From IMG/VR virus record IMGVR_UViG_3300008952_000017: a DNA stretch of 56,610 nt; one strand, written 5' to 3'. Below are positions 1,028 to 27,796 of the stretch, one piece after another. The translations under genes and the position numbers were made by a program. Source of the DNA: an uncultured virus (IMG/VR IMGVR_UViG_3300008952_000017) (lineage: Duplodnaviria; Heunggongvirae; Uroviricota; Caudoviricetes). The notes beneath the pieces are model-generated. The model saw nothing but the letters and a program-made list of their open reading frames with translations. It was not told where the DNA came from and did not search any database. Positions within the stretch are counted from its first letter, which is position 1, and every line of letters starts with the position of its first letter.

Positions 1028-1107
1028 TTCTTGATTTTCTTCTCTTTTTCTTTATTGAGAACTAAAGTAATTATTGTTAGTGAATAGAATAAGAATATCA
1101 AGAATCA
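1028..1107. repeat. AT-rich dispersed element, copy 1 (copy 2 at ~14829-14900)
   Basis: 1066-1107 matches 14859-14900 at 36/42 nt. A 14-bp inverted repeat (1028-1041 vs 1091-1104, 13/14) brackets the AT-rich core. Confidence 0.75.
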
Positions 1108-4100
1108 TCAGCAGTTGGGTCCTCACCTAGTACGTTTGCGAGAAGATTACCGCCCTCGGGTATAGGTGACGGTTTAGGTGCTGACATGAATGCCGATAGA
1201 CTGTCTTCATCTATTGAGGCTTCCTGGGCTGCACCATGATAGTGATGGTCACGTTGCCATGATGACAACTTGCTACGCGCATCTTCCGCATGCTGGTCAC
1301 GGAGAGTGTGATAGAGGTCGGGTCTTATACCACAAGTTTGTCTTACTTGTGCATTAGGATTATCAGGGTGGGGCCAGTGAGTGATATCATTGCTGTCATC
1401 CCCTTCTGTAAATCTAGGCAATAGTGGTATTCTCACGTGAAGATGCCCCGACTGTAACCCACTCAACATATCCTGTGCAAATTGCTCACCGATAGTGGTA
1501 TTCTTATCAGGGTGATTGGCAGTTTGTGGAGGGATACCATTGACAGTCAAATCTCGGTCCGTCAACAACCCCTGCTTACCATAATTATCTCCCCCAGGCG
1601 TCTCAATCTCATGATTCCTGGCTGCTGATAGTCTACGCACATAGTCATGTAAAGACCTAATATGCATGTTAGTGACTTTCTCAGGGTCTTCCCAATGGGT
1701 GGTTAATTCGACTATATACTTGGCGCTTTTTCTCATCTCTTCACTGTGTTGCTCAGGATTCGCATTTATCTTCCTAGCCAAGTGTGCCACCCGCCTTCCC
1801 TTTGTAGATAGAGTCCATTTCGACTCCCCATCCACCAGCCTAAGGCCACCCAACTCCCCTGCATCATCAAGACTCGGGTCTAATCTCAACATGGAGTTTT
1901 GGAACCTTTCCCATTGGTGTGTGACTTCAGACTTCTCCTTTAACGCCTTGTTAATATCTCTGATAACATAGGCTACTTGGGATGCAGTGGTAAGGGAGGC
2001 ACCCTTCATGGGCTGGAAACCTAGTCCACTCAACCTAGAACCAAATCCAGGATGCAACACATGGATTCTGAAATTGGGGTCAAACATACGTTCAGCCTTA
2101 GCGTACAACCTTTTACCATTCTTGACATACTTCACTTCACCTTTCTTTGTCCTTTCAATCTCACCACCTGGACCTCTCGCCACTAATACCCCCTTCAAAG
2201 TTTGCAAGAATGCCTTAGAGTCAATCTCTGTTTTCTTGGTTTTATCATAGGGGTCTAATCTCACTAACTTACCACCAAACTTCAATACGTGATTTATTGG
2301 CTCATCCTTTATTCCAATCGACTCACCATCGTCACCACGAATGGGCATAGGTTTCAAACTAAGACCAGCGTGACACCCACAAGGCTCACCTGTGAGTTTA
2401 TTCTTCCCTGTATTCTGTTCCGTCTTTGAGTCATAACATTGGTCACATCGAATCAAAGCATGGTCTCTACCCCAATCCCTGTAATTCTCCATCCTCTCTC
2501 GTAGACGCTCTCTATGCTTCCCTTCGATTACATGTGTCGGGTCACCATAGATATCATGTGGTGGGGAACCACCGGCAAATAACAGACTCTTGAGAATAAC
2601 ATGGTCCTTCGGTGGCATATCGGATACATATCTCAGTTTACCAGTCTCTATGTTAGTGGTCCACTCACCATAGGAATGACCACACTCACAATTTGGTACC
2701 GTCTGTTTGTATTTGTCGTTCTGAGCATGGTATTTTTCACCCTCTTCGCTCTTATCGTCTTGACGAGATGGCGTCGGACTAAAGCACTCAGGGCAAAGCG
2801 AGTTCCCAGTAGGTAGTTTCCATTGACCACCATGTTTAGGATGTTGAGAAGCATCTCTCATCTCATCAATTCCAGTTAATTTAATCATAGGCATTCTATT
2901 GGCTACTCTACCATAATCCCATTTAGCCCTATCGAAGAAATGAATCCCTCTATTGTACGCATCCGCATTCTTCTCCTGAGGTTGCCAAAAGACTTCAGAG
3001 GCCAAGATAGAAGGATGAATCCTAGCGGCATTATCACCAACCCTGCTGCTTTCATGGCCCAACCCGAAATCAGCGGCTGTACCTCTCCTACCTCTACTGT
3101 CTTCGAAATAAGGCATGTAGTAATCTTCGTTACCGTGATTACCCTTGATTAGATGCATGCCTATGAAAGAAAGTCCTAGTCTACCAACCCCACTATTACT
3201 AAAGAACGCTCCATCTTCTTCATCAAACACCTTCCCTTGTAAGGCCTCTTCCAAGTCCCCTTGCTCTAGATTTGTATGTCCTATTATTTGGCGGAGGAGG
3301 TCATGGCCACCAAACACCCTAGCCTTCCCAAGGATAGGATTGTCACCCATGTGCAGTTTGTGTATCATCTCATGATGGTGGTTCTCGCAAAACCTACCGT
3401 AAGGGTTTCGGTATTCTCCTTCTCCAAACTTGCTGTGAGTAGCCATCAATGGTTCCTTGTGTGGGTGAACTCCCTCACCATTACAGTTAGCACACTCAAC
3501 ATCTCTATCTCCGTCTATTGGTAGCCACTCTCCTCTCTCTTCATCAAAGGATGTATTGGGTACCTTTTGTTTACCTGTCCCCTTACAACTACGACACTCA
3601 TCATCGTTATCCAATCCGGCGCCACAGAATGGATGCTCGCATCTCCCCTTTTTCCCTACTTTGAACTCGTCTCTATTGTGCACCACACCTGTTCTATGCA
3701 AAGCATCTTTATGTTCCTCAGTGAACCAACTAGGCCATATATCAGAAAAGTGATTTCTTCGGTCCTCATCGGCGTAAATCAACCTACGGATATCATCTAC
3801 CGTATGACCACTGGTTAACGTGTGACCAGTCCTCTTCTGATATTCATCTATGAGGGCAGATTCACCCCATTGGCTTATGTTTAGAGGGTCATGGTGAACC
3901 CACTCACTGAGTCTCCAGTCTTCCTCATTCTCGAAATCACCGTACTTGAATGGGTCGAGGATTGCCTCGAGATTAGCATTCCCCTCAATATCCTCTTCAC
4001 CATCAGGAGATTGGAACGTCTTACCAGCCAAAAGTTTCCTCGCCCTACTCCTTAACTCCTCAATACCGACCTTGAAACGGTCAGGGTAATGCCCCATTCC

Positions 4101-7100
4101 CATGTCACCCTTATCTCGATATTCCTCCGCAGTCTTCCCGTAGCCCCTTACTATCCTGTGTAACGTAGTGACTTCTCTTTTCGTTGCCTCGCTCAACCAC
4201 TTCTTGAAACCTTCATCAGTGCCAGTGTAACTACTAGGAGAAAGGGTCGGCCATTCACTAATTCCAGGCATTTTCCCTTCATAGAGACTCTTAGCCTTCG
4301 CCGTCAGAGAGCGGAGATAATGGTTTTCAGATTCCATCATCTTCTGAATAATGAAGCGTCTTACGTAAGCATCCATGTCCTTCTCATATTGCTCAGTGGT
4401 GCCAAATACCCCCTTCTGTCCATCATCAGTCTCCCATGGAATAGGTAGGTATGCAGACTCGAATGTTGGATTACCTTCGTCATCCAGTCTTGTATAACCA
4501 TCCGGTTTGTGCTCAATAAAACGCTCGAGGTCGAACCCTGCTCGCCTACCTGCTTGATGTTCAAATAATTGTGTCCAAACTGGTGTTCCACTCCCACTAT
4601 GCCATACACCATCGTCACCTATTTCATCACCCATACCTTTAGCGTGCATTATCGCATTGAGTAATCGTATGTTGTGGATAGTATCTCGTGCAGTCTTACT
4701 CAATTGCTGGCGCCCTCTCCCTTCTCCATCACAGCCATGGCAATGACCCGAACCCTCACAAATGACACATTGGGGCCCTGTACCACCTTGTTGACTACCC
4801 AACCAATTGATGTACTTACTACTGTAATTGCCATCTTCATTGAATATCTCCCAGTCACTCGGAACAAAACCATGGCTCTTCATTCTCTCGAAGAACTCAT
4901 GCCACCCATCCTTCCCTTCATGCCCATGGGATGTCTTCATGTGTTCGTGCACCCAGTCAATAGCATCGGGATGCCCCCACTTAATTTCGTGTGATTGATG
5001 CCCCCCTTCACCCAATGAAGAGAGTTTTCTCCCTCCTATGTGAGGGGTATATTCCTTCATCGCATCATCATTTTCTTGGTATGGGTTGAGAGTACTCCAC
5101 CAATATGCAGCGTCATTCATACCAGGCCAGTGAGCACCACGGCCCTTACAAGCAAGGCATCTCGTAGAAGTGCCCATGGTATTGGTGCCGACCTGAGCCC
5201 GCTTGATATTACCCTCCTTCATTCGCTGTCTACTCAACTCCTTATTCTCGGACCTAAGAAATATCTCGTTCCTCAATAGAAGCCAATTACTTACCATGTC
5301 TCGGTATCTGTCCGTTACTTCATGTATGTCCTCCATTGAGGGGAATCTGTGCCCCTCGAGCCAATCACCATTCTTTGTCTGGATAGGTCTGCCGTTAGTA
5401 ATAGCCCGCCACAGAAGGTCCGTGAGGGAAAGTTTCTCGCCTTCGTTTACCCCACTAGTGATTTCATAGAACCGATTACTGTCTATATCAGGCATTGATT
5501 TACCAGTTACCACCCATCCATCATTGAACTTCCCTAGTGTTTCATCATCATGTTGCCTCCATGCTTCTGCTAATGCCCCATTAAGGAGTTGGTGATGACG
5601 GGCACCCTGTATGAAGAAGTCCATACTCGGATTATTCTCATGCGGTTGTGTGTACCCAACATCGTCTGCATCATAAGCACTATCGTGCTGTCTCTCGAGT
5701 TTACTGAAAGCATGGTGTTTAAGCATCATCAAGATATTATCCAAGACATCCTCCTTGTGTAAGAAAGTCCCTTTCTTAGAATCGAATGAAAATATAGACC
5801 TAGGTAATATGTCTTCGTCTATCCCACTTGCATCTAACAATTGTTTCCTATCCTCACTGAAATTCAAATCACCCCACCGCTTGGCTAGATTCAGTAATGG
5901 CTGAAGTTTACCATAGCCCATATCCAAGGCCACCCTTTCATCATCTGCTAGGCCATATTCATTCTTACTCTTACCTAATATCTTTCTAGCCCACCCCCAC
6001 AAATCATCTTCCTTCTTGAAATACCATCTTCGAAAGTCCTCATCTGTCAACCCCTCCTCTCTCTTCCTTTCTATGAGTTCGGGTAAAGGTAAGCCCAAAG
6101 GGTTGCCATGCTTGTGTAGCATATAATTAGGCTCTAGTATATGCATGGCTAGTAAATTGGCAAGTGCATGCTCACCATGCTCATCTACCGGTAGATTCTC
6201 TATGGCATTTTGGAGTATTGCTATCTCATTACTCTGAGTGATAGGTGAATTGTGAGCCCAAAGAGTATCACCGTACCTCCTCCTACCACGGTAGCCAGGA
6301 CCATCCGCTGGGTTATGACCAGTAGGGCTTACCATTCTTGCATTGGCTATGGTAAGAGCACCGCGTGGTATTACCGCCCCCACTCCTAATGTGGAACCTG
6401 TCATAGTATGCATCTTAAGGGGGGTCTTGTATTCCCCCCGACCTTGGTAATTCTCCTGCATCCTACTCAATATGGGCTCGTATATATCTCTCACACGCTC
6501 CCACAGTAAATGCTCAGGTGATTTCCCAATAGACTGCTTAATATCAAAAACCATCTCCGAAAGGTCGGCAGAGTCCCCCCTCTTCTCTGCTTCAGGGCAT
6601 GCCGCAAACTCTGGGAATGGGGAACCCTCTTTGTGTTCCGCTATAGTATGAACATCACCATGCAATAAACCAAGTACCTTCAACTTGTTACAATAAGGGC
6701 AAGGCATATCATCATCTATCTTTACCCCCGTAGGGATAAGATAAGGCCCTTCCTCCCAGCCCTCTTTGAACTTAGGAATAATTGACTCGTCTTGGTGGTA
6801 TTGCATCAATGCCTCTCTGACACCTTCCCCAGTTAGTTCCCTCTCTAATTCCCTAATCTTCTCTTTAATTGCCTCAGGGGACAACTTCACCTGTAATCCT
6901 CCACCCTCTCTCCAGTCACCACTCTCATCCCTACCGTAGGACCGTGTCGGAGGTATCTCGCCCAAGTTACCATATCTCTCACTAGGGCCTAGTGCATCCA
7001 TCTGCTTCATTAAAAGCAAGATATGCCTATACTTCTCCTCATTAGCACCTATCTCATTCACTCCTGGCCTAATAGGGAGTGGTACTCTACTTGGGAATTG

Positions 7101-10100
7101 GCTCCAATCTGACATAAACCTAGAACTGGAACCACCAGCAACAGGTGCAGCCGTCACTAATTTACCACTTTGATTGTAATTCCCGCCCCTGAAAGTAGTC
7201 GTATGGTAAAGGTGCGCCCTCCCACCCCCACATGTCTCACAAGAAACACCTTGCGGGTTCAACCATCTATTCTGAGAATGGGGTGCTGCCCTCCCCAATT
7301 CCTTCTCAAGTAGCCCCTTACGGAACATATCCCCGATTTCATCCAAGGACCAAGTCCTTGTAATCCACGGTTGCCTCTTGAGCATTTTCTTAACACCTTC
7401 ACTACCAGTCCCAGCACAACCCGTATTTGTTAGTGGGTCCCAACAACGCATGCTCTTAGTGGGCATACCACCCACATCCAATTCATGACCGGACCCCCCA
7501 CAACGTGTACAATGAGTAGAATTATCTTCAGGGTCATACTTTTGCATAGTCCCATCATCTACTAACATATTCCGTCCATCAAAGTCAGGATTATGGGCAT
7601 GGGTGAGATGTGACATAACACGATTAAACTCCTTATCAGGGAGTGTTTCGGCATTATTATCATTGAAAGGGAGATTGGCTGCCATCAAACCGAATAAGGT
7701 ATCCATAAAACCAGCATCAACTGCGTTCTCAGGAGATAAGCCATCAATAATGCGCTTACTCACTCCTTCTACTCCATCAGAAATACGACTAAAGATATCT
7801 CTGTAATACTCTCTCAAGAAGTCCTTGACAAACTCCACTCTCCGTTCCTTGCTATCTTGAGGTGATTCATTCAATGCCCTGACAGCCAGTGCCCTTGCCT
7901 TACTGATACCCTTAGCACTCAATGGCCCTTTCTCGGTATGCAATGCAGGCCATGAGGTGATAGGATGTATCTCGTATGGAGTAGTCATTTTATCAGGTGG
8001 TATGAATCCTTTGCGTAATGACTCATCAGCAGCACCCTGCTCTTCTGAAACGTGAGTAGAAAGCAGTCTATCCCTCACTCTAAGGTTACTCGCATGCAGA
8101 GCCTCAACATCCTCTTTATCGAAAGTCGCCTCACGTGGGAACCCCCAGCCCCTATGGCTATAGAAACTGCCCATATCAGGTACCATTCTCAGGTTCTCCT
8201 TTGAACGAAGTTCTGTGAATGGCGCACAAGTAGAGCACTGACGTAAATTCCCAAAATCAGTCTCCGTTTCACCATGCCCCTTACATGTAGGGCAAATCTG
8301 CAGCAATCCCATTTCTATTGCATTCTTCTTATCAGCAATATCAGCCTTGTGCAATAAACCGCCGCTGTAATTTGGGTCTTTGTTTAACTTTGGGTCATTA
8401 TATTGCTGCATCGCTGGATGTCTCTCGCCGTTTTCATCAGTGACCCAACCAACAAGTTCCCCCACAAGACTTTCGACGAACTTCCTATTCGCGTCAGTAT
8501 CCTTTTGCGCTGTATGTTGCGGCTTACGCATACCTGCCCGTCCAGCCTCATCGTCCCACCCATGACAAGCATGTGGTGCATCACGACAGTTCATCCATGG
8601 GTGTTCCCTATCATTGCCTTCTTCATCACAATACTCGCATTTCTTAGCCCCCGACATGCCCTTGTATTGCTCTATGAACTGTCTTTTCTCTGCGGCTGTC
8701 TTGCGTTTTATGTGAGTAGCCCTTTGACCCCCACCTTTACGCTTCTCTGCTTCAATCTCATCCCAATGAGTATCCCCATGGAGCCTAGCAAAATCGTCAC
8801 TAGCAATGATTTCGGAATAGTCCTTGACTCGACCGTTTATGGTTAGTAGCAACTCTGAGAGTCGTCTCATCCTCCGAAAATTCCTCCTCTCTCTTCGAGT
8901 ACCCTCACTCAAGGAACTATAGCGAGTGACAGCGTTCAATGCTTGTCTTGGGCTCATTCTACCACCACCAATGTTACGTGTTAACCAGTCCTCAGTAGAA
9001 TAATCTAAGTCCAACCTTTTGGCTCTATTGTTACCACTCATTCCGTTCATTATATTGTGCATCCAGTTAATGAGATGCTTCTTAGTAGTAGGTAACCCTT
9101 CTTGTTCATGTCCTCCCTCTTTAACGGCCCGTGTCATAAGGTCACCCACATCATTATCCCTGTACTCACCGACGGACCAATTCATGTCAACTGGAATTAT
9201 CCCCTTGAGAGATTTCTCCCACTCATCTAGAGCGACATTACCCTTGGGAGTTCTCACTAACATCTCTCCTGTGTCGGGATGCTCGAATGTGGATGCTGGC
9301 TCCTGACTAAGATATTCCTCAACATCCTCAACAGAGTCCTTGGGGTCAAGAGCATACATCTCATCATTCCGACGATTACTTGCGCTCTCCTTGTGCACAT
9401 GCTTGGCAAATTGACTCATAGCATCACCAGGGAGTTTACTAGGTCCAGCGCCCCCACTCGCACGTGACTCGCGCCGCATCCCTTTCTTGATGAGTATCCC
9501 AAGTAAAGGGCCGTTTACCACGTTGAGACCGAGTAGGATTTTCTTCTCTTCACTATTCAGTTGCTCCCAAGTGTACTTAATCCGGTCCATGCGACCCTGC
9601 TGTTGTTCTGTAGCGGCGTCTGACACAGTACCATAGGCATATTGTTGATGGTTGACTCTCTCAGTGATAATATGGGCAATGGTAGTTAGAGCACCGAAAG
9701 CACTCTCATTCTCCCTTTCGTCAAATCTTTCACCCTCTCCCTCACTGAAGACTGGGGAGAATGACTCTAAGTGACTCCTCGCCTCATGGAACAACGGGCT
9801 CTGTTGTGCCTTACTCACCCCTTCATTCCAAAACCTCCTAAAGAGAGCATCTTGGACCATTACCCTAGTTGTAGAACGTTCAGCCAGTTTCGTGATTTCA
9901 TCATCTGTCTTACCTTGTTGATGACGGCGATTTACAGTACGTAGTCTCTTCAGTTCACGCTGTACTTGACTCCTCCATTTAGGTGTCCCCTTCACACGCT
10001 CTTCGTAATTTAACATCTCCCTTTCTATCTCAGGGTTGTTAAAGCCCCCCTTCCGATTCGAGAAGCCGTCAGCCATTTCATATGCATATGCATGTGCCAA

Positions 10101-10883
10101 TATAGTCAAAAAATATCGTAACTGACGTTGTAAGCCACTAACACCATCCTTCACTAATATCTCATTTGGGTCTCCAAGAACTGAACGAGACTGCTTATTC
10201 CTCTTGAGATATTCCCAACTAAGGCGCCTTTCAGCCTCCTTCCTCAGATGCGCTGGCCCATACTGTCTTATTTTGTCACTCTCGTACCCGTGGTCGATTC
10301 TCGTCTGTATCTCTGCTATTTTGGATAATATAGCCGCTTCACTGGGAGGCCTATGCCATATGTCCCCTTCCAGTCCAGTCCTCATCATCTTATTTGCTGT
10401 ATGCTTCCTAATCTTCTTGTCAGGTATGCTTAATATGAACCTAGCAGCAAGCATGCTATTTATTTCGTTCATGACCTCTATGGACTGTCTAAGATTCTCA
10501 TCTTCACGAGAGAGGGCTTCGTTGACTGCTTGTGCTACGAGATGTTGTGTATCCCACAAGGACTTAGGCGGCTCCTCCGCTTCAGGGTCTTCAGGGTCCT
10601 CAGGGTCTATGGTTTGCAACTCACCATTCTCATCTAGGTGGTGAGTTTGAAGGGCCTGTCGTAATGAGTTTAGGTCAGGCAACTTATTGCTATAGGAGTC
10701 CTTGAGATAGGTATCTACCTCATCCATTGCTTCATCAATACTCTTATCGGGATGTGCGACTGCTAACAGCATGTGCAATCTCTTCAAATCCTCATCTTTA
10801 CCCCAATTAGCCAAAGCCTTGAGGTAAATATCGTCCAAGATATGAGACCAAGCGAGGTCTAACGGTGAACCTACCACGAACAT
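1098..10883 (-). CDS. giant 3261-aa protein with many Zn-finger (CxxCxGxG, DnaJ-type) motifs; possible virion internal protein
   Basis: Uninterrupted 9.8-kb ORF with seven exact CxxCxGxG motifs, further CxxC pairs and an N-terminal PLDLAW...LKA leader. Function not identifiable. Confidence 0.85.
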   Translation of the reverse strand: MFVVGSPLDLAWSHILDDIYLKALANWGKDEDLKRLHMLLAVAHPDKSIDEAMDEVDTYLKDSYSNKLPDLNSLRQALQTHHLDENGELQTIDPEDPEDPEAEEPPKSLWDTQHLVAQAVNEALSREDENLRQSIEVMNEINSMLAARFILSIPDKKIRKHTANKMMRTGLEGDIWHRPPSEAAILSKIAEIQTRIDHGYESDKIRQYGPAHLRKEAERRLSWEYLKRNKQSRSVLGDPNEILVKDGVSGLQRQLRYFLTILAHAYAYEMADGFSNRKGGFNNPEIEREMLNYEERVKGTPKWRSQVQRELKRLRTVNRRHQQGKTDDEITKLAERSTTRVMVQDALFRRFWNEGVSKAQQSPLFHEARSHLESFSPVFSEGEGERFDERENESAFGALTTIAHIITERVNHQQYAYGTVSDAATEQQQGRMDRIKYTWEQLNSEEKKILLGLNVVNGPLLGILIKKGMRRESRASGGAGPSKLPGDAMSQFAKHVHKESASNRRNDEMYALDPKDSVEDVEEYLSQEPASTFEHPDTGEMLVRTPKGNVALDEWEKSLKGIIPVDMNWSVGEYRDNDVGDLMTRAVKEGGHEQEGLPTTKKHLINWMHNIMNGMSGNNRAKRLDLDYSTEDWLTRNIGGGRMSPRQALNAVTRYSSLSEGTRRERRNFRRMRRLSELLLTINGRVKDYSEIIASDDFARLHGDTHWDEIEAEKRKGGGQRATHIKRKTAAEKRQFIEQYKGMSGAKKCEYCDEEGNDREHPWMNCRDAPHACHGWDDEAGRAGMRKPQHTAQKDTDANRKFVESLVGELVGWVTDENGERHPAMQQYNDPKLNKDPNYSGGLLHKADIADKKNAIEMGLLQICPTCKGHGETETDFGNLRQCSTCAPFTELRSKENLRMVPDMGSFYSHRGWGFPREATFDKEDVEALHASNLRVRDRLLSTHVSEEQGAADESLRKGFIPPDKMTTPYEIHPITSWPALHTEKGPLSAKGISKARALAVRALNESPQDSKERRVEFVKDFLREYYRDIFSRISDGVEGVSKRIIDGLSPENAVDAGFMDTLFGLMAANLPFNDNNAETLPDKEFNRVMSHLTHAHNPDFDGRNMLVDDGTMQKYDPEDNSTHCTRCGGSGHELDVGGMPTKSMRCWDPLTNTGCAGTGSEGVKKMLKRQPWITRTWSLDEIGDMFRKGLLEKELGRAAPHSQNRWLNPQGVSCETCGGGRAHLYHTTTFRGGNYNQSGKLVTAAPVAGGSSSRFMSDWSQFPSRVPLPIRPGVNEIGANEEKYRHILLLMKQMDALGPSERYGNLGEIPPTRSYGRDESGDWREGGGLQVKLSPEAIKEKIRELERELTGEGVREALMQYHQDESIIPKFKEGWEEGPYLIPTGVKIDDDMPCPYCNKLKVLGLLHGDVHTIAEHKEGSPFPEFAACPEAEKRGDSADLSEMVFDIKQSIGKSPEHLLWERVRDIYEPILSRMQENYQGRGEYKTPLKMHTMTGSTLGVGAVIPRGALTIANARMVSPTGHNPADGPGYRGRRRYGDTLWAHNSPITQSNEIAILQNAIENLPVDEHGEHALANLLAMHILEPNYMLHKHGNPLGLPLPELIERKREEGLTDEDFRRWYFKKEDDLWGWARKILGKSKNEYGLADDERVALDMGYGKLQPLLNLAKRWGDLNFSEDRKQLLDASGIDEDILPRSIFSFDSKKGTFLHKEDVLDNILMMLKHHAFSKLERQHDSAYDADDVGYTQPHENNPSMDFFIQGARHHQLLNGALAEAWRQHDDETLGKFNDGWVVTGKSMPDIDSNRFYEITSGVNEGEKLSLTDLLWRAITNGRPIQTKNGDWLEGHRFPSMEDIHEVTDRYRDMVSNWLLLRNEIFLRSENKELSRQRMKEGNIKRAQVGTNTMGTSTRCLACKGRGAHWPGMNDAAYWWSTLNPYQENDDAMKEYTPHIGGRKLSSLGEGGHQSHEIKWGHPDAIDWVHEHMKTSHGHEGKDGWHEFFERMKSHGFVPSDWEIFNEDGNYSSKYINWLGSQQGGTGPQCVICEGSGHCHGCDGEGRGRQQLSKTARDTIHNIRLLNAIMHAKGMGDEIGDDGVWHSGSGTPVWTQLFEHQAGRRAGFDLERFIEHKPDGYTRLDDEGNPTFESAYLPIPWETDDGQKGVFGTTEQYEKDMDAYVRRFIIQKMMESENHYLRSLTAKAKSLYEGKMPGISEWPTLSPSSYTGTDEGFKKWLSEATKREVTTLHRIVRGYGKTAEEYRDKGDMGMGHYPDRFKVGIEELRSRARKLLAGKTFQSPDGEEDIEGNANLEAILDPFKYGDFENEEDWRLSEWVHHDPLNISQWGESALIDEYQKRTGHTLTSGHTVDDIRRLIYADEDRRNHFSDIWPSWFTEEHKDALHRTGVVHNRDEFKVGKKGRCEHPFCGAGLDNDDECRSCKGTGKQKVPNTSFDEERGEWLPIDGDRDVECANCNGEGVHPHKEPLMATHSKFGEGEYRNPYGRFCENHHHEMIHKLHMGDNPILGKARVFGGHDLLRQIIGHTNLEQGDLEEALQGKVFDEEDGAFFSNSGVGRLGLSFIGMHLIKGNHGNEDYYMPYFEDSRGRRGTAADFGLGHESSRVGDNAARIHPSILASEVFWQPQEKNADAYNRGIHFFDRAKWDYGRVANRMPMIKLTGIDEMRDASQHPKHGGQWKLPTGNSLCPECFSPTPSRQDDKSEEGEKYHAQNDKYKQTVPNCECGHSYGEWTTNIETGKLRYVSDMPPKDHVILKSLLFAGGSPPHDIYGDPTHVIEGKHRERLRERMENYRDWGRDHALIRCDQCYDSKTEQNTGKNKLTGEPCGCHAGLSLKPMPIRGDDGESIGIKDEPINHVLKFGGKLVRLDPYDKTKKTEIDSKAFLQTLKGVLVARGPGGEIERTKKGEVKYVKNGKRLYAKAERMFDPNFRIHVLHPGFGSRLSGLGFQPMKGASLTTASQVAYVIRDINKALKEKSEVTHQWERFQNSMLRLDPSLDDAGELGGLRLVDGESKWTLSTKGRRVAHLARKINANPEQHSEEMRKSAKYIVELTTHWEDPEKVTNMHIRSLHDYVRRLSAARNHEIETPGGDNYGKQGLLTDRDLTVNGIPPQTANHPDKNTTIGEQFAQDMLSGLQSGHLHVRIPLLPRFTEGDDSNDITHWPHPDNPNAQVRQTCGIRPDLYHTLRDQHAEDARSKLSSWQRDHHYHGAAQEASIDEDSLSAFMSAPKPSPIPEGGNLLANVLGEDPTADDS

Positions 10884-12710: not shown

Positions 12711-13067
12711 TCACTCTTTATCAGGTCTCTTATCCACGTCATTTATGCGGTCAACCATCGCTCTTCGCCCCGAGGCTACCAAATCCTCTTCTGTAACCTC
12801 TCCGTTCGGCCCACTTCCATATTCAGTACCGTAACCACCATCATTCTCTCGAAGGGCAATGATGCCTGCCCCTCCCTGTGGTGTCAAACCACCACGTGTT
12901 TTAATCTGGCGTATATCGTGTTGCTTATCAGGGTGTAACTGTGATATCCAATCTGTAGCAGGGCAGTCACAAGTGCGCCCACAAGCGTGACAGGTATTAC
13001 CACGTCCTTCGTAATCCATATGCTCGGGATAAGACTTCAGGATTTGCCACGCTTGCTCTAGGGGCAT
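12711..13067 (-). CDS. small Cys-rich protein with PLEQAWQILKS leader (start reassigned to ATG 13067)
   Basis: ATG at 13067 gives MPLEQAWQILKS, matching neighbouring leaders; CHAC..CDC and HPDK. The track's upstream extension runs through homopolymer tracts. Confidence 0.7.
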   Translation of the reverse strand: MPLEQAWQILKSYPEHMDYEGRGNTCHACGRTCDCPATDWISQLHPDKQHDIRQIKTRGGLTPQGGAGIIALRENDGGYGTEYGSGPNGEVTEEDLVASGRRAMVDRINDVDKRPDKE

Positions 13068-13400
13068 ATACGTACGTAAGGGGGGCTCAATTATGAGTTT
13101 TTTCCCCAAAAAATTTTTGTAACAAACGACAGAATACCCTTTCTGGGGAAAAAATTTCTCTATTTCGCACGCTGTTAGAACTGCAACTAAAGATACGTGC
13201 ATAACGCAAATCCGGCTAAGCGGTGTGCTACTGCGCCAAATCTAACCCATGACGGGTTCGGCTCAAACCGTGCTACTGAGCCTCACCATATGGTAAGCAT
13301 CACTGCCCTTCACGACATTCAGGCTCACTTGGCTCTCTTTGTTATTAGTCCAACCTCGACGAGCCCCATAGTAGGGGGTTAGTGTGTGTTGGTGTATGAT
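13068..13400. promoter_or_regulatory. divergent strand-switch region with inverted and direct repeats
   Basis: Coding strand flips here. TTTTTTCCCCA (13098-13108) / TGGGGAAAAAA (13144-13154) inverted repeat; GTGCTACTG(C/A)GCC direct repeat at 13225 and 13270. Confidence 0.55.
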
Positions 13401-13413
13401 GAAGGTGAAAGAA

Positions 13414-14127
13414 ATGAAAACAACAGACGTTAAATCTGTGATGACTCGGCTCGTAGCAGCCAGCGCTCTTGCGCTACTCGCTACCGCTAAGGCAGGTGAG
13501 AAGTTTTGCGCTGTGGTGTTCTATGGGAACACACCATACGCATTCTTCGTCACCCATCTTGGTGCGAACACGAAGGCATTGGGAGCACACCGCGACAGTG
13601 GCGTTCTCGCCGTCGGTAATAACCTGTGGAAGGGACTCAGGGAGTTTTCTGGAGCGATGCTTCAGGGTCTTTGGGATTGCTATGACGGAGCAGCGTCATT
13701 CACTCGTATGGAGTGGATTGACGAGCAAAGTCAGGCAATCATGGATAAACTCACCACGAGTGGTGAGAAGGCTCTATGGGCAGCAATCGAAGACGATATG
13801 ATTGGTGCCTTTAGGATTCCAGCGACAGCCGAAGACGGCCGCTATGAATTCGCAATCCCTAAGATTGAGAAGTGGATGGCGGACTTTGCATCCCACAAAG
13901 CATGGGATAGCATGGATATTGCACAAATAGCAATCAATCCAAAGTGGCTATCGAAGGATGCTCCGAAAGGAATCAGCACCTTCGGTGAATTGCTCGCTAC
14001 GGCAACCCATCCAGCAGGTCAGTATGTGCAAGTCAAGGACAAGTTGCAACCTGCTGAAGTGTCCTATCAAGGTGGGGCTCGACAGCAAATCGACTTCGGT
14101 GAAGTCGATGAAGACCTCTTTGGTTGA
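13414..14127 (+). CDS. hypothetical protein, first gene of the plus-strand arm
   Basis: AAGGTGA SD before ATG 13414; acidic C-terminal tail (DFGEVDEDLFG); followed by a strong hairpin. Confidence 0.8.
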   Translation: MKTTDVKSVMTRLVAASALALLATAKAGEKFCAVVFYGNTPYAFFVTHLGANTKALGAHRDSGVLAVGNNLWKGLREFSGAMLQGLWDCYDGAASFTRMEWIDEQSQAIMDKLTTSGEKALWAAIEDDMIGAFRIPATAEDGRYEFAIPKIEKWMADFASHKAWDSMDIAQIAINPKWLSKDAPKGISTFGELLATATHPAGQYVQVKDKLQPAEVSYQGGARQQIDFGEVDEDLFG

Positions 14128-14163
14128 ATAGGTCAATCACAACACAACAGAACCACGTAAGGC

Positions 14164-14189
14164 CACCCTCACCCTTCGGGGTGGGGGTG
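14164..14189 (+). terminator. 11-bp stem with cUUCGg tetraloop (terminator or RNA-stability hairpin)
   Basis: CACCCTCACCC-TTCG-GGGTGGGGGTG, one G-U pair; no strong U-tract after it. Confidence 0.6.
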
Positions 14190-14199
14190 CGCTGATATT

Positions 14200-14600
14200 C
14201 ATTCATTCTCTAATGGTATTAGCAGCGTATTAGAATCAACATCGGGTTTAGTCAGCCCACGCTCAAGTTGAACCTGCTACATCCATCAGATACACAGGGT
14301 AAGTTAGTGTCTCTACCCTACCAAAACTGACTGCCTACCATAGCAGCCAACACTAACCCATGTAATCATTGACTTCAAGTCAAGCATGGTCGGGCTTAAC
14401 AGGTGCCTGGCTCCTAATGAGGGGGCAAAACCTGTCTTTACACTCACATCGTTGGGAGGCCAACGACACATATATGACTACACCGTTCCAGAGATGCGTC
14501 TTGACCATATGGTCAGGGAGAGACGCACATAATGAGACAGTTTAGTTATCTACTTTCACCCTGCTACAAACGAGTCATGGAGATAACCATGATGAGGGGA
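14200..14600. ncRNA. candidate structured non-coding RNA
   Basis: No good ORF across most of it; six consecutive stem-loops readable by eye (see findings). Family not recognised. Confidence 0.4.
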
Positions 14601-14828: not shown

Positions 14829-14900
14829 GATTCTTCTTGGTTTCTCTATAAAGAAAGTAGTAATTATTGTTAGAGAATAACAAGAGAATATCACGAATCA
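14829..14900. repeat. AT-rich dispersed element, copy 2
   Basis: Shares AGTAATTATTGTTAG.GAATA.....AGAATATCA.GAATCA and the upstream TTCTTCT...TTTCT tract with 1033-1107. Confidence 0.75.
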
Positions 14901-16016: not shown

Positions 16017-19000
16017 ATGAGAAAAATGGAAGATAAAACGAGAGAACTAATTGATGAACTAACAGAGATGATAGAAGGTGATGTGACTGAGTTCACACCA
16101 CAGGCCGAGTTGGATGATATAATCAAAACACTGGGAGAACTCAGGACTCCAATAGACCTATTGAAAGATGGACGATTGGAGAAAATGGGAAAAGACCTAT
16201 TCAAAGTATCACATGATAGTCTCCATCCTCTGACTAACAAAAGTATTCGGGGATTACCAATGCTTAGCGTCAAAGTAGAGCGATTAGAGTCATACCTATC
16301 ACTGTTACACAAGATGGGGGTTATGGACAAGGCAGTAAGAAACGATAGAGTGATTGGAGAGATGCCCCAAGAAGCGCAGACCACTATCTTCCAGTATTTG
16401 AATGAACTGATGGTATTGGAAGAGGCAGCAACAGTTGTCCCTGTTGATAAAGAAGATAGGGATTACCTCATCGGTGAATTATCTGCGGCCATCTACCACA
16501 AAGCATGTGAGGCCATAGATGAGAAGGGTGTCAGTATATTCGGTGGTAGCCTAAACCTTGTCCGCTCACATTCACACATAGATGATGATGCTGTGAATAG
16601 AATACCACACTACAAGACTCTAGCAGAGAAGGCCTACAAATACTACAATGATTCTGATTTAGATGGATTCACTGATGGGAGAGAGTTTTCAGTAGTATCA
16701 ACACTGTTTGCTTGGGAGATTCATCCTTCTACTCCACAGACATCTCAGAAGGCTAGAGGTATTCAAAAACTGACTGAATTGAATAACACTTATTCATGGG
16801 TTACTAGGCCTTGTGTATTCCTACCACTACTCAGTGTAGTAGAGGGCACCAAATATGATATAATCACTTCATTGACTGTTTCTGGAGTAGTGTCTATTAG
16901 TGATTTTAGTAATGATAGGCCACTATACATTCGCACTTGCCCTAGCACCCCAAGACCTGGAGTGCTACCTAATATCAAAGCAATAACGCAACAAGAGGTA
17001 GTCGAGGGTGCAAAATTCCTAGCCAATTCGATGCTCAACCCTAACCATGCAGATTATGACCCTAATGGGGTTCTATGTGTTATGGCATTCGAGGAGAGCG
17101 TGATGTCTGCAGTATTGGCTCGCTATCAAGACACCATTGTCTGTGCGAGAGGTAATGCTGGAGTCACAGCAGCACAAGGTGGTGCGATTATTATTCAACT
17201 CAATCACAATGCTACAAAGAAAATTGAGAATGACATTCAAAGATGTTCCTTAGACGATGGCTACGACTACCACGAATTGGAGTTTGTGTGGCCAAAGGAA
17301 GATGAAGTCACAGGTCAGATTTGGCACCCCCATCGTAGTATCTCGGTGGGGAAATCAAGCATAGAGGCCAGCCCTATACTCACCCAACTACGTGGTTTGG
17401 CTACGCAGAAGCCGGATATTAAACCAGCATCCACATTTGAGCATCCTGAGACGGGAGAGATTATTACAACAACCATCAGGGGCAATGTCCCTGCTGGTTT
17501 TGTTGTGCAACAAGCCGTTGAAGATGTAGGGAGAGGAGACTTAGCAGACTGTGCTAAGTTAGAGAAGATGATTAACGATGGGGACATACCTGACGGTTTA
17601 GTAGTCTACTGCCCTTCGGGTAGCCCCAATGCTCATGCTGCTGGTGTTTGTAGTGAACATGTTATACCTATCATCTACGGCATTCAACCTTGTGATGATG
17701 GAATCACATGGACAGAGATTAACTCATGGGTGACTACAGTAGAAGGAGTAGAACCCTTACCTTACGACCCATCACCTTTCAAAGAGTATTTCTTCATAGG
17801 GTGCAAGGAAGGAGACCGCTACTGGGACTATGGATATCATGTGCTATCGCAGTTCTTCCACACTTTCATAAATGGACCATTGAATGACCCCCGATTCGAG
17901 GCATACTTGGCTGGATTCTTCGCATCGTGGGTCATCAAAGCCTCCATAGCAGTGGCCTTAGGAGAAGCAAGATATGGATTCCAATCAAGAGCCAAGTATT
18001 TCCCAGTGCATGGTGCTATCACTATTACAATTGCAGAGGGACTAGCAAATAAGCCGGAAGATGAGAATCCAATAAAAGATTGGGCTTTGAGAGACGTATA
18101 CTATTCACTACTACGATGCAGGGAGGTCGGGCTAGAATCCCTCTATGAAATACTCGCTGGACTCACAAGGGTTTACGAAGAGGATGTAAACTGGCCTGAC
18201 TCCTATGGAGGTAAGAATTACCGAGAATCATGCGAGAAAGGAATGGACGCTGTTAAATCATTGATGAATTTCAGAGATGGGAAAGTTAGTATCCAAGAAG
18301 TCCTCAATAGAGTGAATGTCTTGGAGAATGCAGTTCACAACTGCAACTTCTTCTTTGATAAGTTTGTTGCTAACAAGCAATACTTCGAGATAGGCACTAG
18401 GAACCACTCCTCATTAAATACAATACCTCAGCAATTCATCATAGCATCTGCACTACATACGAGATTCTATACTCAAATAGTCGACGAACCCCATATGATA
18501 TGGCAAGATGCTAAAATATACAAGTCGGGAGTCGTTAATGAGAACGGATACAAAGTAGCCAATCACAGGCTACTAACTGAATTACTACCAAGACTCAGCA
18601 GAGAAGACATCCACAGTAGCCTACACTCTTACTCAGAACACCTCGAAGAGTCAACAAAGAGATTCACCACAACAGCAGAAAAGCCATTCCACGAATTAGG
18701 AGTGTGTGGTTTGTTAACTTGTCTGAATGAAAAGTGTGTTGAATCGCATTTGCTCGACGAACTCGGACTCAACACAAAGCAGACTGCCCGCTTATCCCAA
18801 ATCATCTGTTCGGAGGTGGGTGGTAGTTCAGGGGGCGGACTTTGGAAGAAGTGGGTTCACCCTCTAGATGCATTTAGCGGTATTATTGAAGACCATGCCC
18901 CCAAGCATTATGACCCCCACCCGATGATTCTATCATCACCTAATAGGTTAATCGAAGATTGGTCTTTACCTTTCGAGATTAAACATGGTGCCCTTTACGC

Positions 19001-19706
19001 AAAGAATCCCGAAGCCCCTAATATGCTTTGGATGCCTGAGGGAGGCAAACTATCTCACATCGACATAGCATTTGAACCACTTGTCGTTGCATGCAGAGAC
19101 ATATTCAAAAATGCAACAATTCTAGATATTCTCTACCTATGTGATTCAATAATCCCGTCGGACAACACCTTACCACCGTCAGTAGATGCCCAAAATGCGT
19201 ATGGACCTGCTAATCAGAGAGAGGGTTTAGACGATTTAACATCCACAGAGTTGCTAACATATATGGGTCTACCCAATCATGAAATAGACTCTATCTCGCC
19301 TACTACACATGGCTTAATAGAGATGACAACAGACTTAATCCTACATTCAGAATTCCCAACAGAGGGGCTATACGATAATTATAGTAAGAAGTTCCACTTT
19401 GGGCATCCTAGTGATTGGAGATATTGGCCATTACAGAATATACTCATGAAAATGGCTCGTATCATGCTGGAAGAGAAGATTATCAATAATAGTCACAACT
19501 ACGGCACTTCCTACACATGGGAATCGCCCTCTAAGTTGCAACCTACCCCTGCTACTGTTAGGGGCAATTACTCCCTATTCAATAGAGTAGGAGGTTTGAA
19601 AAATGCAATTGACATATTATTGGCCAATTCAAATATAACAACTTCAGACCTAGCCGCCTTAGCGGATAGACACACACTCCACCTACAACAGGAGGAAGAA
19701 AAATGA
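16017..19706 (+). CDS. PEP-synthase/PPDK-like dikinase: ATP-grasp plus phosphohistidine swivel domain plus unknown C-terminal domains
   Basis: QKARGI, PLYIRTCP..PRPGVL, SAVL, HELEFV and LTQLR parallel the GGK.., VRS..PG, SGV, DIEW and LQAR motifs of PPDK_N. GSPNAHAAGVCSEHVIPIIYG parallels the swivel motif G..SHAAIVARE.GIP.VVG (His codon 17634). Confidence 0.7.
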   Translation: MRKMEDKTRELIDELTEMIEGDVTEFTPQAELDDIIKTLGELRTPIDLLKDGRLEKMGKDLFKVSHDSLHPLTNKSIRGLPMLSVKVERLESYLSLLHKMGVMDKAVRNDRVIGEMPQEAQTTIFQYLNELMVLEEAATVVPVDKEDRDYLIGELSAAIYHKACEAIDEKGVSIFGGSLNLVRSHSHIDDDAVNRIPHYKTLAEKAYKYYNDSDLDGFTDGREFSVVSTLFAWEIHPSTPQTSQKARGIQKLTELNNTYSWVTRPCVFLPLLSVVEGTKYDIITSLTVSGVVSISDFSNDRPLYIRTCPSTPRPGVLPNIKAITQQEVVEGAKFLANSMLNPNHADYDPNGVLCVMAFEESVMSAVLARYQDTIVCARGNAGVTAAQGGAIIIQLNHNATKKIENDIQRCSLDDGYDYHELEFVWPKEDEVTGQIWHPHRSISVGKSSIEASPILTQLRGLATQKPDIKPASTFEHPETGEIITTTIRGNVPAGFVVQQAVEDVGRGDLADCAKLEKMINDGDIPDGLVVYCPSGSPNAHAAGVCSEHVIPIIYGIQPCDDGITWTEINSWVTTVEGVEPLPYDPSPFKEYFFIGCKEGDRYWDYGYHVLSQFFHTFINGPLNDPRFEAYLAGFFASWVIKASIAVALGEARYGFQSRAKYFPVHGAITITIAEGLANKPEDENPIKDWALRDVYYSLLRCREVGLESLYEILAGLTRVYEEDVNWPDSYGGKNYRESCEKGMDAVKSLMNFRDGKVSIQEVLNRVNVLENAVHNCNFFFDKFVANKQYFEIGTRNHSSLNTIPQQFIIASALHTRFYTQIVDEPHMIWQDAKIYKSGVVNENGYKVANHRLLTELLPRLSREDIHSSLHSYSEHLEESTKRFTTTAEKPFHELGVCGLLTCLNEKCVESHLLDELGLNTKQTARLSQIICSEVGGSSGGGLWKKWVHPLDAFSGIIEDHAPKHYDPHPMILSSPNRLIEDWSLPFEIKHGALYAKNPEAPNMLWMPEGGKLSHIDIAFEPLVVACRDIFKNATILDILYLCDSIIPSDNTLPPSVDAQNAYGPANQREGLDDLTSTELLTYMGLPNHEIDSISPTTHGLIEMTTDLILHSEFPTEGLYDNYSKKFHFGHPSDWRYWPLQNILMKMARIMLEEKIINNSHNYGTSYTWESPSKLQPTPATVRGNYSLFNRVGGLKNAIDILLANSNITTSDLAALADRHTLHLQQEEEK

Positions 19707-20350
19707 AAACAAACGAGATAACAAAAAATATGGAGATACACAAGAAAGTAAAGAACGGTGCAGACCAACCTGATATGTGGCTGGAAGATACGGATAACTA
19801 CAAAGAATCCGCGACTCCACACTTCAGGGTTAAGGTCTCAACACTAGCCCAAGTAGGTAAAATACACCTACAGTTCGGCTGTCCTGATGTTGAGGGACTA
19901 CACAAAGACATGAAAAGGGATATAGGTTCTCCTTTCATTCACCTCACTGGACATTGCCTACGCCCCTATGGGTTGGCCTTCGACATGATGGTCAAGAATG
20001 GAACGATAGACCACCACCAAATCCAAGAGATTGGAATAGCAGCAGAGAAGCACGGTGTGAGAGTCGATTCACTTGCCCAGGCCTCTGACTATACCATGAT
20101 GGTGTATGAAGGAGTGGTTGATGGACACATAGACTCTATCGAAAGAGATGGAGAGAGTGTTGTTACGATGCAACGAATGATGTTGCAGTTCCACGTTGGA
20201 GAAGAAAAGAATAAGATGTTCATACCCTTCGATGGTATAGCCTCTATCGGCAACGATGTAGGAGTTATAGTGCCAGAGATATCACCGGCTTGGATGTTGG
20301 CGTGGCTATGTGCTCGCTACTTCGAGGACAAAGAAGAGGAGGTGCAATGA
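19703..20350 (+). CDS. hypothetical protein
   Basis: ATGA-coupled to the dikinase-like gene. Confidence 0.75.
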   Translation: MKTNEITKNMEIHKKVKNGADQPDMWLEDTDNYKESATPHFRVKVSTLAQVGKIHLQFGCPDVEGLHKDMKRDIGSPFIHLTGHCLRPYGLAFDMMVKNGTIDHHQIQEIGIAAEKHGVRVDSLAQASDYTMMVYEGVVDGHIDSIERDGESVVTMQRMMLQFHVGEEKNKMFIPFDGIASIGNDVGVIVPEISPAWMLAWLCARYFEDKEEEVQ

Positions 20351-20611
20351 ATGGGAGTCCCAGTAGAGATGATTCTTTCGCTCTTAGTGAAAACCAAGCA
20401 TGAGGGTGGTGACATCCAAGAGTTGTTGAGTAAGACACCATCTTTCATGCTCCTTCAGACTCTTGAGTTTGCTCGAGAGAATCTCCCGATGGTCAAGAAG
20501 AACAAACAGGAATCAATGGATTCTGTAATGAAAGGAATAGAAACACATTTGGGGCTAGATAAGATTCGTGTCAAATGTGAAATTACCACCAATATGGAGG
20601 CTTACGAATGA
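20351..20611 (+). CDS. hypothetical protein
   Basis: GGAGGTG SD; abuts both neighbours. Confidence 0.7.
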   Translation: MGVPVEMILSLLVKTKHEGGDIQELLSKTPSFMLLQTLEFARENLPMVKKNKQESMDSVMKGIETHLGLDKIRVKCEITTNMEAYE

Positions 20612-22251
20612 CCTACTACGGAGCAACATCCTATGGAAGGAACGCATCAACAGAGTGCCATTGGGGGAACCCTCTAGCATTCACTACAATTGACGGAATA
20701 AAGGTTCATGCCGGAGGTAGTAGTCGAGGGGGAGGCTGGTGGAAGATGGAGCCACTACCCAACCTAGCACTAGGGCCTGATAGTGAAGTCAAGAAAGGCT
20801 ACGGTCACCTACTCGTGAGAACAACGTCTAAAAATATGGATGGCTGGACATGTATGGGCAACCTCGTAGAGAGGAAACCCCCAGCAGTATTAGAGATGGA
20901 TTTCCCTGACTACGGTGTCCCATTGGACTGCGACAAGGAGTTTTGGGAGGCGCTTGCTGTCGATATCAGAGAGAGAAATATCAAGGTTATCCACACTATG
21001 TGTATGGGTGGTCATGGTAGGACTGGTATACAGTTGGCTTGCTTAAGATGGCACCTAGCGACCGAAGAAGAGAGGGAGGCTTGGCCTGACGCTCACACTT
21101 TGATTATGAGTATCCGTGAAAAGTATTGCAGCAAGGCAGTAGAGGGTGACTCACAACAGGATTATGTTGCAGAGATGTGTGGTATTCCTATTGGAGATAG
21201 GCTATCCTTCCACAAATACGGAGGAGGGTCATACACCGGCACCACCCATTCTTCTTACAAGAGGGACACAAGGAGTAGTTTGACTGCACACAACAGAAAG
21301 ATTCTCTCCTGTGATGAGTGTGACTTAGTGACTGTGGAGGACCATGAATCGAACATCAAAGAAGATGAATACTGCTGGGACTACACATGTAGAGGTATGT
21401 TCGCAGATATCACTGAGGATGTCGTGATAAGAAGCAAAGCACAGACACCAGGTGCTGCTATTTGTCTAACTACAATGGATATCACCTCCGAGATAAATAT
21501 GATGAAATTAGATATCCTAAGTGAGGAACTAATGGAGAAGATACATGGAAAGGATTGGGATAAGGTGCTTCAGAAGTTAATGAGTAATCACAAGAAGACT
21601 ACTCTCAGAGGAAAACTAATTCGCCAAATAGCCCTTTACTTTTCTCTACCCGAACAAAAGAAGGCAGAGAGTGGAGATATCTTGGTATGTGTCACTGATA
21701 TTACATGTGACCCAAGAATGGAAGGACATTACATCCCTAATTACAACAAGAAAGGTAAGGATGTGAAGTTTAGCAGTCGCTCCTTTACTGATTGTGGCTT
21801 TTGCAAGGAGAGGGTTTCTCCCAATAAAATGACCTATGCTACTATGGTAAGTCAGGGCAAAGCATTAGAGAAAATGTATTGTATTTGCTCTGAGTGTGTT
21901 GTGACACTCGGCCCTTATGAGTTAGATGATAGATTAGTAGAATCAGACGAAGCAAAACACGCATTTGTGGATTTAGCAGCATTTGATAATCCTGACGCCG
22001 AAGCAGATGTTCGGAAAGTAAGGATAGTAGATTATCTCAGCCCACAGCATGTCTATCATCTCAAAACGATGAGAGAGAATCACAAGGGTTCGACTAACGA
22101 TGTTAAGGACACAAGGGAGGCTTTGCAAGATTTAGGACTGAATAACAACGAAGTCCCTGAATATGAATATCTACAGGCTGAACTGTGGGATAATGATGAT
22201 GACGATGATAGCACGGCTCCATTGATTGGAATAGGAGGGAACGGAAGATGA
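20608..22251 (+). CDS. PTP/dual-specificity (CX5R) phosphatase with C-terminal Zn ribbons
   Basis: P-loop CMGGHGRTG (21001-21027), FPDYGVP general-acid loop, VE..SQ Q-loop; CDEC, CGFC, CSEC. Confidence 0.8.
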   Translation: MTYYGATSYGRNASTECHWGNPLAFTTIDGIKVHAGGSSRGGGWWKMEPLPNLALGPDSEVKKGYGHLLVRTTSKNMDGWTCMGNLVERKPPAVLEMDFPDYGVPLDCDKEFWEALAVDIRERNIKVIHTMCMGGHGRTGIQLACLRWHLATEEEREAWPDAHTLIMSIREKYCSKAVEGDSQQDYVAEMCGIPIGDRLSFHKYGGGSYTGTTHSSYKRDTRSSLTAHNRKILSCDECDLVTVEDHESNIKEDEYCWDYTCRGMFADITEDVVIRSKAQTPGAAICLTTMDITSEINMMKLDILSEELMEKIHGKDWDKVLQKLMSNHKKTTLRGKLIRQIALYFSLPEQKKAESGDILVCVTDITCDPRMEGHYIPNYNKKGKDVKFSSRSFTDCGFCKERVSPNKMTYATMVSQGKALEKMYCICSECVVTLGPYELDDRLVESDEAKHAFVDLAAFDNPDAEADVRKVRIVDYLSPQHVYHLKTMRENHKGSTNDVKDTREALQDLGLNNNEVPEYEYLQAELWDNDDDDDSTAPLIGIGGNGR

Positions 22252-23365: not shown

Positions 23366-24122
23366 AGAAGATATTGTAATTGATTTGAAGAAAAAAACAG
23401 TGGCTTTGGGAGAAGTCACCATCGACATTTTGAATCAGCGTATCACTGTTAGTGGTATGTTAGATTCAGAAGTAGTTGATGTGAATGCGAGAGATTGGTC
23501 GAATGACATCCAAACTGACCAAATGTTCTACGATGACCCAATACACTCTTTCGGGGATATTGGGAGCACAGAGGATGAGGAGATTACATTTATCCCTCCT
23601 CCAATTGTAAGTGCAAGCAGAACAGTCCGAAGTGGGAAACTCATGGAAGATGCCGCTAAGCGCAGGAAATCATGGGTTGGTAAAACGGTGATTGTCCTCA
23701 AGGATGAACACCTGCCTCTATTGAATGGCTCTGAGTGGATGGTCACGAAGCATATCAATGGTGCTCTATACAGAGGAATGTTGGTTAGTTGCCCACCTGC
23801 AAATGGAGACGAGTGGAACGGTAAGAAGGCCAGCATACTTCTCCGCCACCAGCACCACGAATCAGATTGGATATTCCATCACGATAGGGTGAAGAAGGAA
23901 GAACCCACTGTTATCGAGGAAGAGGAACCGGAAATATGGGACCGCTCAAAAGCCAACTGGTCTGATTTCAAGACATGCAGTAGGTGTGGATTGACTGGTG
24001 TTAACAAGAGAACCTGTGACTCAGTCTTATCAGACGACAAAACTTGGTTGCAGAGGCACCGAGTCAAGAAGCCTGAGGGAACATGGCTAATATACGACGG
24101 CAGCGCAGAATTGGAGGAATAA
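23358..24122 (+). CDS. hypothetical protein with a Zn-knuckle-like motif
   Basis: CSRCGLTGVNKRTC. Confidence 0.7.
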   Translation: MNEEDIVIDLKKKTVALGEVTIDILNQRITVSGMLDSEVVDVNARDWSNDIQTDQMFYDDPIHSFGDIGSTEDEEITFIPPPIVSASRTVRSGKLMEDAAKRRKSWVGKTVIVLKDEHLPLLNGSEWMVTKHINGALYRGMLVSCPPANGDEWNGKKASILLRHQHHESDWIFHHDRVKKEEPTVIEEEEPEIWDRSKANWSDFKTCSRCGLTGVNKRTCDSVLSDDKTWLQRHRVKKPEGTWLIYDGSAELEE

Positions 24123-24124
24123 AT

Positions 24125-27592: not shown

Positions 27593-27796
27593 ATGAATAT
27601 AGAAGATATTGAAAAATACATACTTGAAGGCAATTGGGAGAACCAATACCGACAAGCATTAGAACACCTAATTGCAGAAGTCAAGCGGTTGCGTAAGCAA
27701 CTTGACCGCACGAATAAGCAATTTAACCATCTTACCGACCATTGGCGTGATGAACAATGGGATGAATGGTATAGTATGTGGGGAGATGAAGAATGA
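27593..27796 (+). CDS. LxAEVKRLR-family small protein
   Basis: LIAEVKRLRK motif. Confidence 0.7.
   Translation: MNIEDIEKYILEGNWENQYRQALEHLIAEVKRLRKQLDRTNKQFNHLTDHWRDEQWDEWYSMWGDEE

Follow-up and report, generated by a model that had tools for sequence, protein, structure and literature searches.

In phage T4, templated mutations have been ascribed to sequential strand switching (Schultz, Carver and Drake 2006, as related in the passages on such mutations in the review PMC3016281). Replication-coupled template switches at microhomology are described under the names FoSTeS and ODIRA, the latter of which ties inverted products to an origin (in the sections of PMC10766186 that deal with them), and at the protein level, segments of 20-80 residues common to domains of independent origin have been termed bridging themes (Kolodny et al. 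2021, in the portion of PMC8136508 that defines them). We analysed a stretch of DNA of 56,610 nt from an uncultured virus (IMG/VR record IMGVR_UViG_3300008952_000017), hereafter the window, in which an earlier note had pointed to a short motif shared by two unrelated large genes on opposite strands. A literature search covering the articles themselves found no paper on viral dikinase-like proteins, on this gene pair, or on patches of this kind between unrelated phage genes or in these viruses. Neither 'dikinase' nor 'phosphoenolpyruvate' occurs anywhere in the main text of PMC11706807, PMC5434244 or PMC8651126, whose supplementary annotation tables may name these genes.

The replication genes of the window comprise PolB, an archaeal-type primase, a clamp loader (RFC), a Hef/XPF-like nuclease and a SNF2 helicase, accompanied by a thermosome gene, and the best phage-record matches of the PolB were haloviruses, at about 25%. 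Viruses carrying these proteins come from marine metagenomes, with identical proteins on contigs of 116-119 kb, and the window derives from a marine virus, probably one of archaea. Shared with magroviruses (group A, Philosof et al. 2017, as characterized in part of PMC5434244; Aoguangviridae profile, PMC10768690) are the marine setting, two oppositely transcribed gene blocks, this contig size, and PolB, archaeal-type primase, RFC, thermosome and SNF2 helicase, whereas genes for an HK97-fold capsid, a portal and a terminase were not identified within the window; judged by its genes, membership in Magrovirales is probable. Elsewhere in the window, a 47-nt stretch occurs in three copies (27656-27702, 28609-28655 and 28842-28888), encoding a LAEVKRLRE-type peptide in at least two small ORFs, and three diverged 48-nt repeats (24553-24789) lie within a 259-aa ORF (24083-24862).

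A tract shared by two unrelated genes

The identity of 34 out of 38 nucleotides reported in the earlier note, between 9262-9299 of a giant-protein gene (minus strand) and 17424-17461 of a dikinase-like gene (plus strand), was borne out, with coordinates and peptides exact. The match reached E=8e-7 in a self-BLASTN of the window and the peptides E=1.6e-4 in BLASTP among the 58 window proteins, while the best of 60 codon shuffles of the kinase gene gave 27/38; among the matches listed for the window, the pair is the longest inverted repeat. The extent of 38 nt and 12 residues given for the motif is correct for this core, but the full homologous tract is longer, at 69 nt or 23 codons (9231-9299 versus 17424-17492, 75% identity), and its two arms, inverted relative to each other, share a codon register and are separated by 8124 nt. 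All four core differences do fall at third positions, although one of them changes the amino acid (D/E) and only three are synonymous. In the second half of the tract, 16 of 27 nucleotides are identical (nt 40-66, binomial P=4e-4), and nt 40-69 hold four first-position and four second-position changes.

An assembly chimera at either site had been raised as a possible source of the match. The motif was present in all eight giant-protein cluster members that cover the site (one of which may be the window's own record; the cluster has 11 members, 3 of which stop short of the site) and in all three covering members of the four in the kinase cluster. The giant site is also spanned by a contig of run X10, with 124 differences and 0 gaps in 1925 nt (8700-10624), and by a contig of run X11, with 16 differences and 0 gaps in 479 nt (9034-9512), from relatives of about 94% and 97% identity that are colinear with the window at this site. 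Because the motif occurs in every cluster member covering the sites and the contigs of relatives cross the giant site ungapped, the match is no assembly artefact, and a chimera was ruled out.

Proposed donor and recipient

The plus-strand gene (16017..19706) encodes a protein of 1229 aa resembling PPDK, PEP synthase and rifampin phosphotransferase, with 24 further homologues at 36-67% identity. Its original description as dikinase-like agrees with the structural model (pLDDT 86), for which these three enzymes were the top Foldseek matches, and with His540, which is invariant in 25 of 25 kinase rows. Like the PPDK/PEP synthase/rifampin phosphotransferase superfamily, the protein has an ATP-grasp domain (about aa 230-465, with its end at about aa 463; Foldseek to 1dik, E=2e-5; model 3-234 on 5hv1, Z 8.7, rmsd 3.2, 192 aligned) and then a domain with the invariant His, which is predicted to be a phospho-His swivel domain; PF00391 was weakly matched in 2 of 25 kinase members, and Atlas neighbours carry it. 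The protein differs from that superfamily in its helical third domain, no PEP/pyruvate barrel being identified in a model that extends to residue 830 and is helical after the His domain, and in that the window kinase has no Pfam or NCBIfam match; a sequence search of the PDB gave E=0.72 at best. Its N- and C-terminal parts are variable.

The donor segment (17424..17492, plus strand; aa 470-492, with the core at 17424-17461) joins the ATP-grasp and phospho-His domains, and is modelled as a beta-hairpin linker followed by the first strand of the phospho-His domain (pLDDT 94-95). Its G-N-x-P end is kept throughout the family (G489 and P492 in 25/25 rows, N490 in 23/25), of the 25 rows, 4 have the hairpin in the exact form HP[ED]TGE, 7 have it in a related long form and 14 in a shorter one, and the segment is nearly unchanged relative to P0002, the next closest kinase; it holds no His matching the invariant His540. 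Because the G-N-x-P end is conserved and the hairpin forms part of the family alignment, the segment is, as far as the alignment tells, native to the kinase family and grew up there.

A shorter kinase subfamily (part of L035-L049), with 26-30% identity and a length of about 765-855 aa, is found in different gene neighbourhoods and is without the hairpin. In the region 16017-22251, the kinase gene precedes a 215-aa ORF and the gene of a 547-aa protein for which a thymidylate-synthase PHROG was matched, and similar-sized ORFs follow the kinase in many loci; the kinase, the 215-aa ORF and the thymidylate-synthase-like protein possibly constitute a nucleotide-modification module. No match to the kinase was found in phage records, and neither kinase nor thermosome was found in the genome collection.

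The giant protein (3261 aa; 1098..10883, minus strand) contains many CxxC pairs and belongs to a family of about 3000-3500 aa in related viruses; it had no Pfam, PHROG or Atlas match, and its N-terminal 1200 aa gave none usable in Atlas. Its closest homologue is only 54-56% identical and several further ones are remote. The homologues share a helical block ending in YL[ST], after which comes a loop rich in G, S, D and E, whose length and sequence are different in each of the 10 homologue rows, which represent about 8 distinct lineages. The recipient copy (9231..9299, minus strand; aa 529-551, with the core at 9262-9299) lies in this hypervariable loop. Here the pLDDT in a model of aa 380-720 is 46-58, down from 76-92, and the loop is drawn as a hairpin, so that the hairpin proposed in the earlier note appears in the models of both proteins. 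The kinase segment was found in the loop of none of the 10 homologue rows, and when 76 kinase rows were searched for short matches to 12 large proteins, the linker turned up in this giant only. Looked for in homologues of both proteins, as the earlier note had suggested, the motif is thus absent from this loop in every giant homologue examined, an outcome that the note had named as refuting its reading, and occurs in its exact form in the 4 kinase rows mentioned above.

Partial look-alikes do occur in the loops of other giants, namely a DPETG turn in P0051, P0058 and L060, SF-x-x-PDT in G003 and, in P0027, G-E-[IM]-x4-P in register with the copy, and [DN]P-x-T-G is found four times in P0060. 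Because of these look-alikes, some of the match may go back to older sequence of the giant, which may also have offered microhomology; the ancestral loop is unreadable because the closest homologue is so distant. Giant and kinase genes are divergently arranged in the window and likewise in both the complete genome G003 and locus L034, the latter two of which carry both genes without this motif. Among five virus records, the giant was found in one (G003), the other four being 39-74% complete; no shorter giant fragments were found among 7999 candidates scored, which does not in itself show their absence, and single-protein or motif scans of viral contigs returned no relatives.

Probable origin and fate of the copy

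The reading we favour, to which we assign a probability of about 0.75, is a lineage-specific templated DNA patch that passed from kinase to giant by template switch or ectopic conversion; its direction, molecular route and neutrality we infer, the route on the precedent of T4. The event would fall in an ancestor that this virus shares with its relatives of roughly 94% identity, after the split from the lineage of P0027 and before the split from the 94% relatives. There, a DNA end within the giant gene, either nascent or broken, would have switched to the dikinase-like gene as template, perhaps helped by short matches that already existed, copied some 40-70 nt of it and then returned. The copy would have been fixed, and later have drifted, because it came to lie in frame and in the sense direction within a loop where nearly any sequence is acceptable; the peptide, a domain linker in the kinase, would serve in the giant as filler, probably still a hairpin, without a functional link between the two proteins. 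The flanks are unexchanged at both sites, each protein aligning end to end with its own family. Ten of the 15 shared amino acids use the same codon, against 5.5 expected (P=0.014), an excess that points to common DNA descent.

When the donor was taken as constrained and the copy as neutral, dN over the 22-23 codons of the whole tract was 0.22-0.24 versus 0.25-0.28 expected (P=0.41-0.57), with 9.7-10.7 non-synonymous differences seen versus 11.1-11.5 expected; amino-acid changes were assigned to the giant copy because the kinase segment is so little changed from P0002. Over its whole length, the copy therefore fits neutral drift. The first 12 codons, a stretch picked for its identity, hold 1 non-synonymous change versus 5.5 expected if neutral (P=0.028 post hoc; permutation for a run this clean, P=0.09), while the last 11 hold 7, a weak hint by which selection on the hairpin half is possible. 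The third-position pattern itself is largely explained because the donor gene is constrained and the best-kept 38 nt were chosen.

Short patch copying is common in this virus group. Coding-internal repeats were surveyed in the window and 24 of 60 loci (at least 40 bits; loci chosen for length and non-duplication, nearly all kinase-centred), and 17 repeats of 25-66 nt were found in 439 kb versus 0 in three codon-shuffled replicates. Thirteen are in frame, 3 antisense and 1 out of frame; three repeats lie between small paralogous genes, and the antisense case in L039 has a doubtful ORF call. The in-frame share (13/17) exceeds what peptide-blind copying alone would give, several of these repeats being paralogous small genes or tandem duplications. 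Three cases read as clear peptide-blind copies: in L008, 34 of 37 nt of the conserved thymidylate-synthase-like gene recur antisense in the variable tail of the kinase, with 3 mismatches spread over all codon positions, unlike the first 12 codons of the giant copy; in L003, 25 of 25 nt of the conserved kinase core recur antisense in the variable N-terminal part of the kinase; and in L024, 25 of 26 nt recur out of frame. The giant gene of the complete genome G003 has a single significant off-gene match, a different patch of 33 nt in the kinase gene (E=7e-5). The frame of this patch breaks after 23 nt and its donor was likely the giant, the peptide being kept in P0050 and missing from three related kinases. 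The best off-gene match of the G001 kinase (E=5e-4) lies elsewhere, and L034 has no kinase-giant patch in the 4.4 kb of giant gene that it covers.

The variable N-terminal part of the G003 kinase (L003 1574-1606/1931-1963, 2213-2244 and 2582-2606) holds three separate short copies, one direct, one from the giant gene and one antisense from the kinase's own core.

A copy that was later co-opted, its first 12 residues now being kept for a role of the hairpin in stabilising the loop or in docking to the kinase or a partner, is a lineage-specific version of the idea in the earlier note. It would agree with the 1 versus 7 distribution of non-synonymous changes, the hairpin predicted in both proteins, the sense, in-frame landing and a site that stays gap-free and colinear in relatives at 94-97% identity. 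We consider it unlikely, given the permutation result, the lack of the motif in 10 of 10 giant homologue rows and in G003 and L034, which have both genes, and the role of the kinase segment as an internal domain linker that offers no counterpart of His540. With no giant-homologue loop carrying the motif, neither the portable docking motif nor the substrate/autoregulatory mimic suggested in the earlier note is supported. Independent origin of a common [DH]P-x-T-G turn, with luck accounting for the remaining match, could draw on the DPETG turn in the same loop of three other giants, the four occurrences in P0060 and the G-E-I-x4-P that P0027 shares in register; it is nevertheless highly improbable in view of the 34/38 identity, which no codon shuffle approached beyond 27, the same-codon excess, the downstream identity of 16/27 nt, and the better match of the giant to its own kinase (T at position 4) than to P0002 (A). 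Programmed rearrangement, whether the arms bound an invertible segment or form the template/variable pair of a diversity-generating retroelement, seems to us barely credible. The inverted arms in common register are such that a crossover would give an in-frame swap of N-termini, but no strand-changing joint between them was seen in 4 of 4 runs (in contigs, which drop rare variants), the same divergent gene order is found in G003 and L034, and both N-termini align with their own families, on which ground a net inversion was rejected. A retroelement origin was likewise rejected, since the differences are not confined to template adenines: of the 17, 4 fall at an A in the kinase copy and 3 at an A in the giant copy. 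No recombinase or reverse transcriptase family was found among 43 window proteins, about half of the genome lying outside the window.

The position of the pair raises a further reading. Gene direction and GC and purine skew switch in a non-coding gap at 13025..13395 (limits approximate, set by eye), which we take as a candidate origin or genome end, and the midpoint of the inverted pair, 13361.5, falls in this gap on the skew minima (GC 13367, plateau 13308-13390; purine 13357, plateau 13335-13403), though not on the AT-skew minimum (13719). By our own post hoc arithmetic, a midpoint would land in the gap by chance in about 8% of cases, and within 40 nt in about 2%. Kinase and giant might accordingly trade patches often and with a bias of position, by switching between the two forks of a bidirectional origin, such patches building variable loops and the hairpin, now kept by selection, being a bridging theme still visible in DNA. 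This we regard as unlikely: the coincidence with both skew minima and the different kinase-giant patch in G003 are in its favour, but, at distances of 2.2 and 11.1 kb from its own skew switch, the G003 pair is not symmetric about it, its frame breaks, and L034 shows no such pair in the 4.4 kb of giant gene that it covers. In an inverted-repeat test of 11 loci, one pair (L047, 32 nt) was centred on the GC-skew minimum, its arms, at about 120 nt apart, being too close for comparison, and a long-range symmetry test gave no excess of mirror-diagonal matching outside the 69 nt. The agreement of midpoint and skew stands as one observation, unexplained, beside the templated patch that we prefer.

Several other features were noted along the window. 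A 71-nt AT-rich direct repeat (1037-1107 and 14831-14900; 77%, E=2e-7) has one copy where the giant gene ends and the other conserved upstream of the kinase in L007 (41/44), L012 and L003, and is probably a promoter, terminator or origin element. Depth over 13054-14297 is about twice that of the flanks in run X1 (11-13 versus 5-6) and not in X5, contig depth being a poor measure; a terminal repeat some 1.2 kb long, or a relative present alongside, could lie behind the doubling. Within the divergent gap, poly-A/T tracts form a 15-nt inverted repeat (13098-13154).

Relation to known systems

The shared tract is real, and it is most likely an instance of an already known process, templated copying. 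On this reading it offers a clean, datable example in which such copying carried part of one protein into another that is unrelated to it. It is also a caution that third-position differences in a shared motif do not by themselves imply a common function. Should the position bias and the recurrence of kinase-giant patches hold in more genomes, they would point to a replication origin and to fork-to-fork copying in uncultured marine archaeal viruses, and such genomes would then form a natural series in which to follow the movement of short segments from one fold to another.

Compared with the templated mutations of T4 (as treated in that part of PMC3016281), the patches seen here are fixed, historical stretches of 25-70 nt between unrelated genes kilobases apart, their route being one that we infer. 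FoSTeS and ODIRA, in the sections of PMC10766186 cited above, explain large eukaryotic copy-number changes, and ODIRA switches within one fork over 40-80 nt, versus 8 kb here. Bridging themes, as defined in that portion of PMC8136508, are ancient and found by remote homology, whereas the present patch is recent, confined to one lineage and still visible in the DNA.
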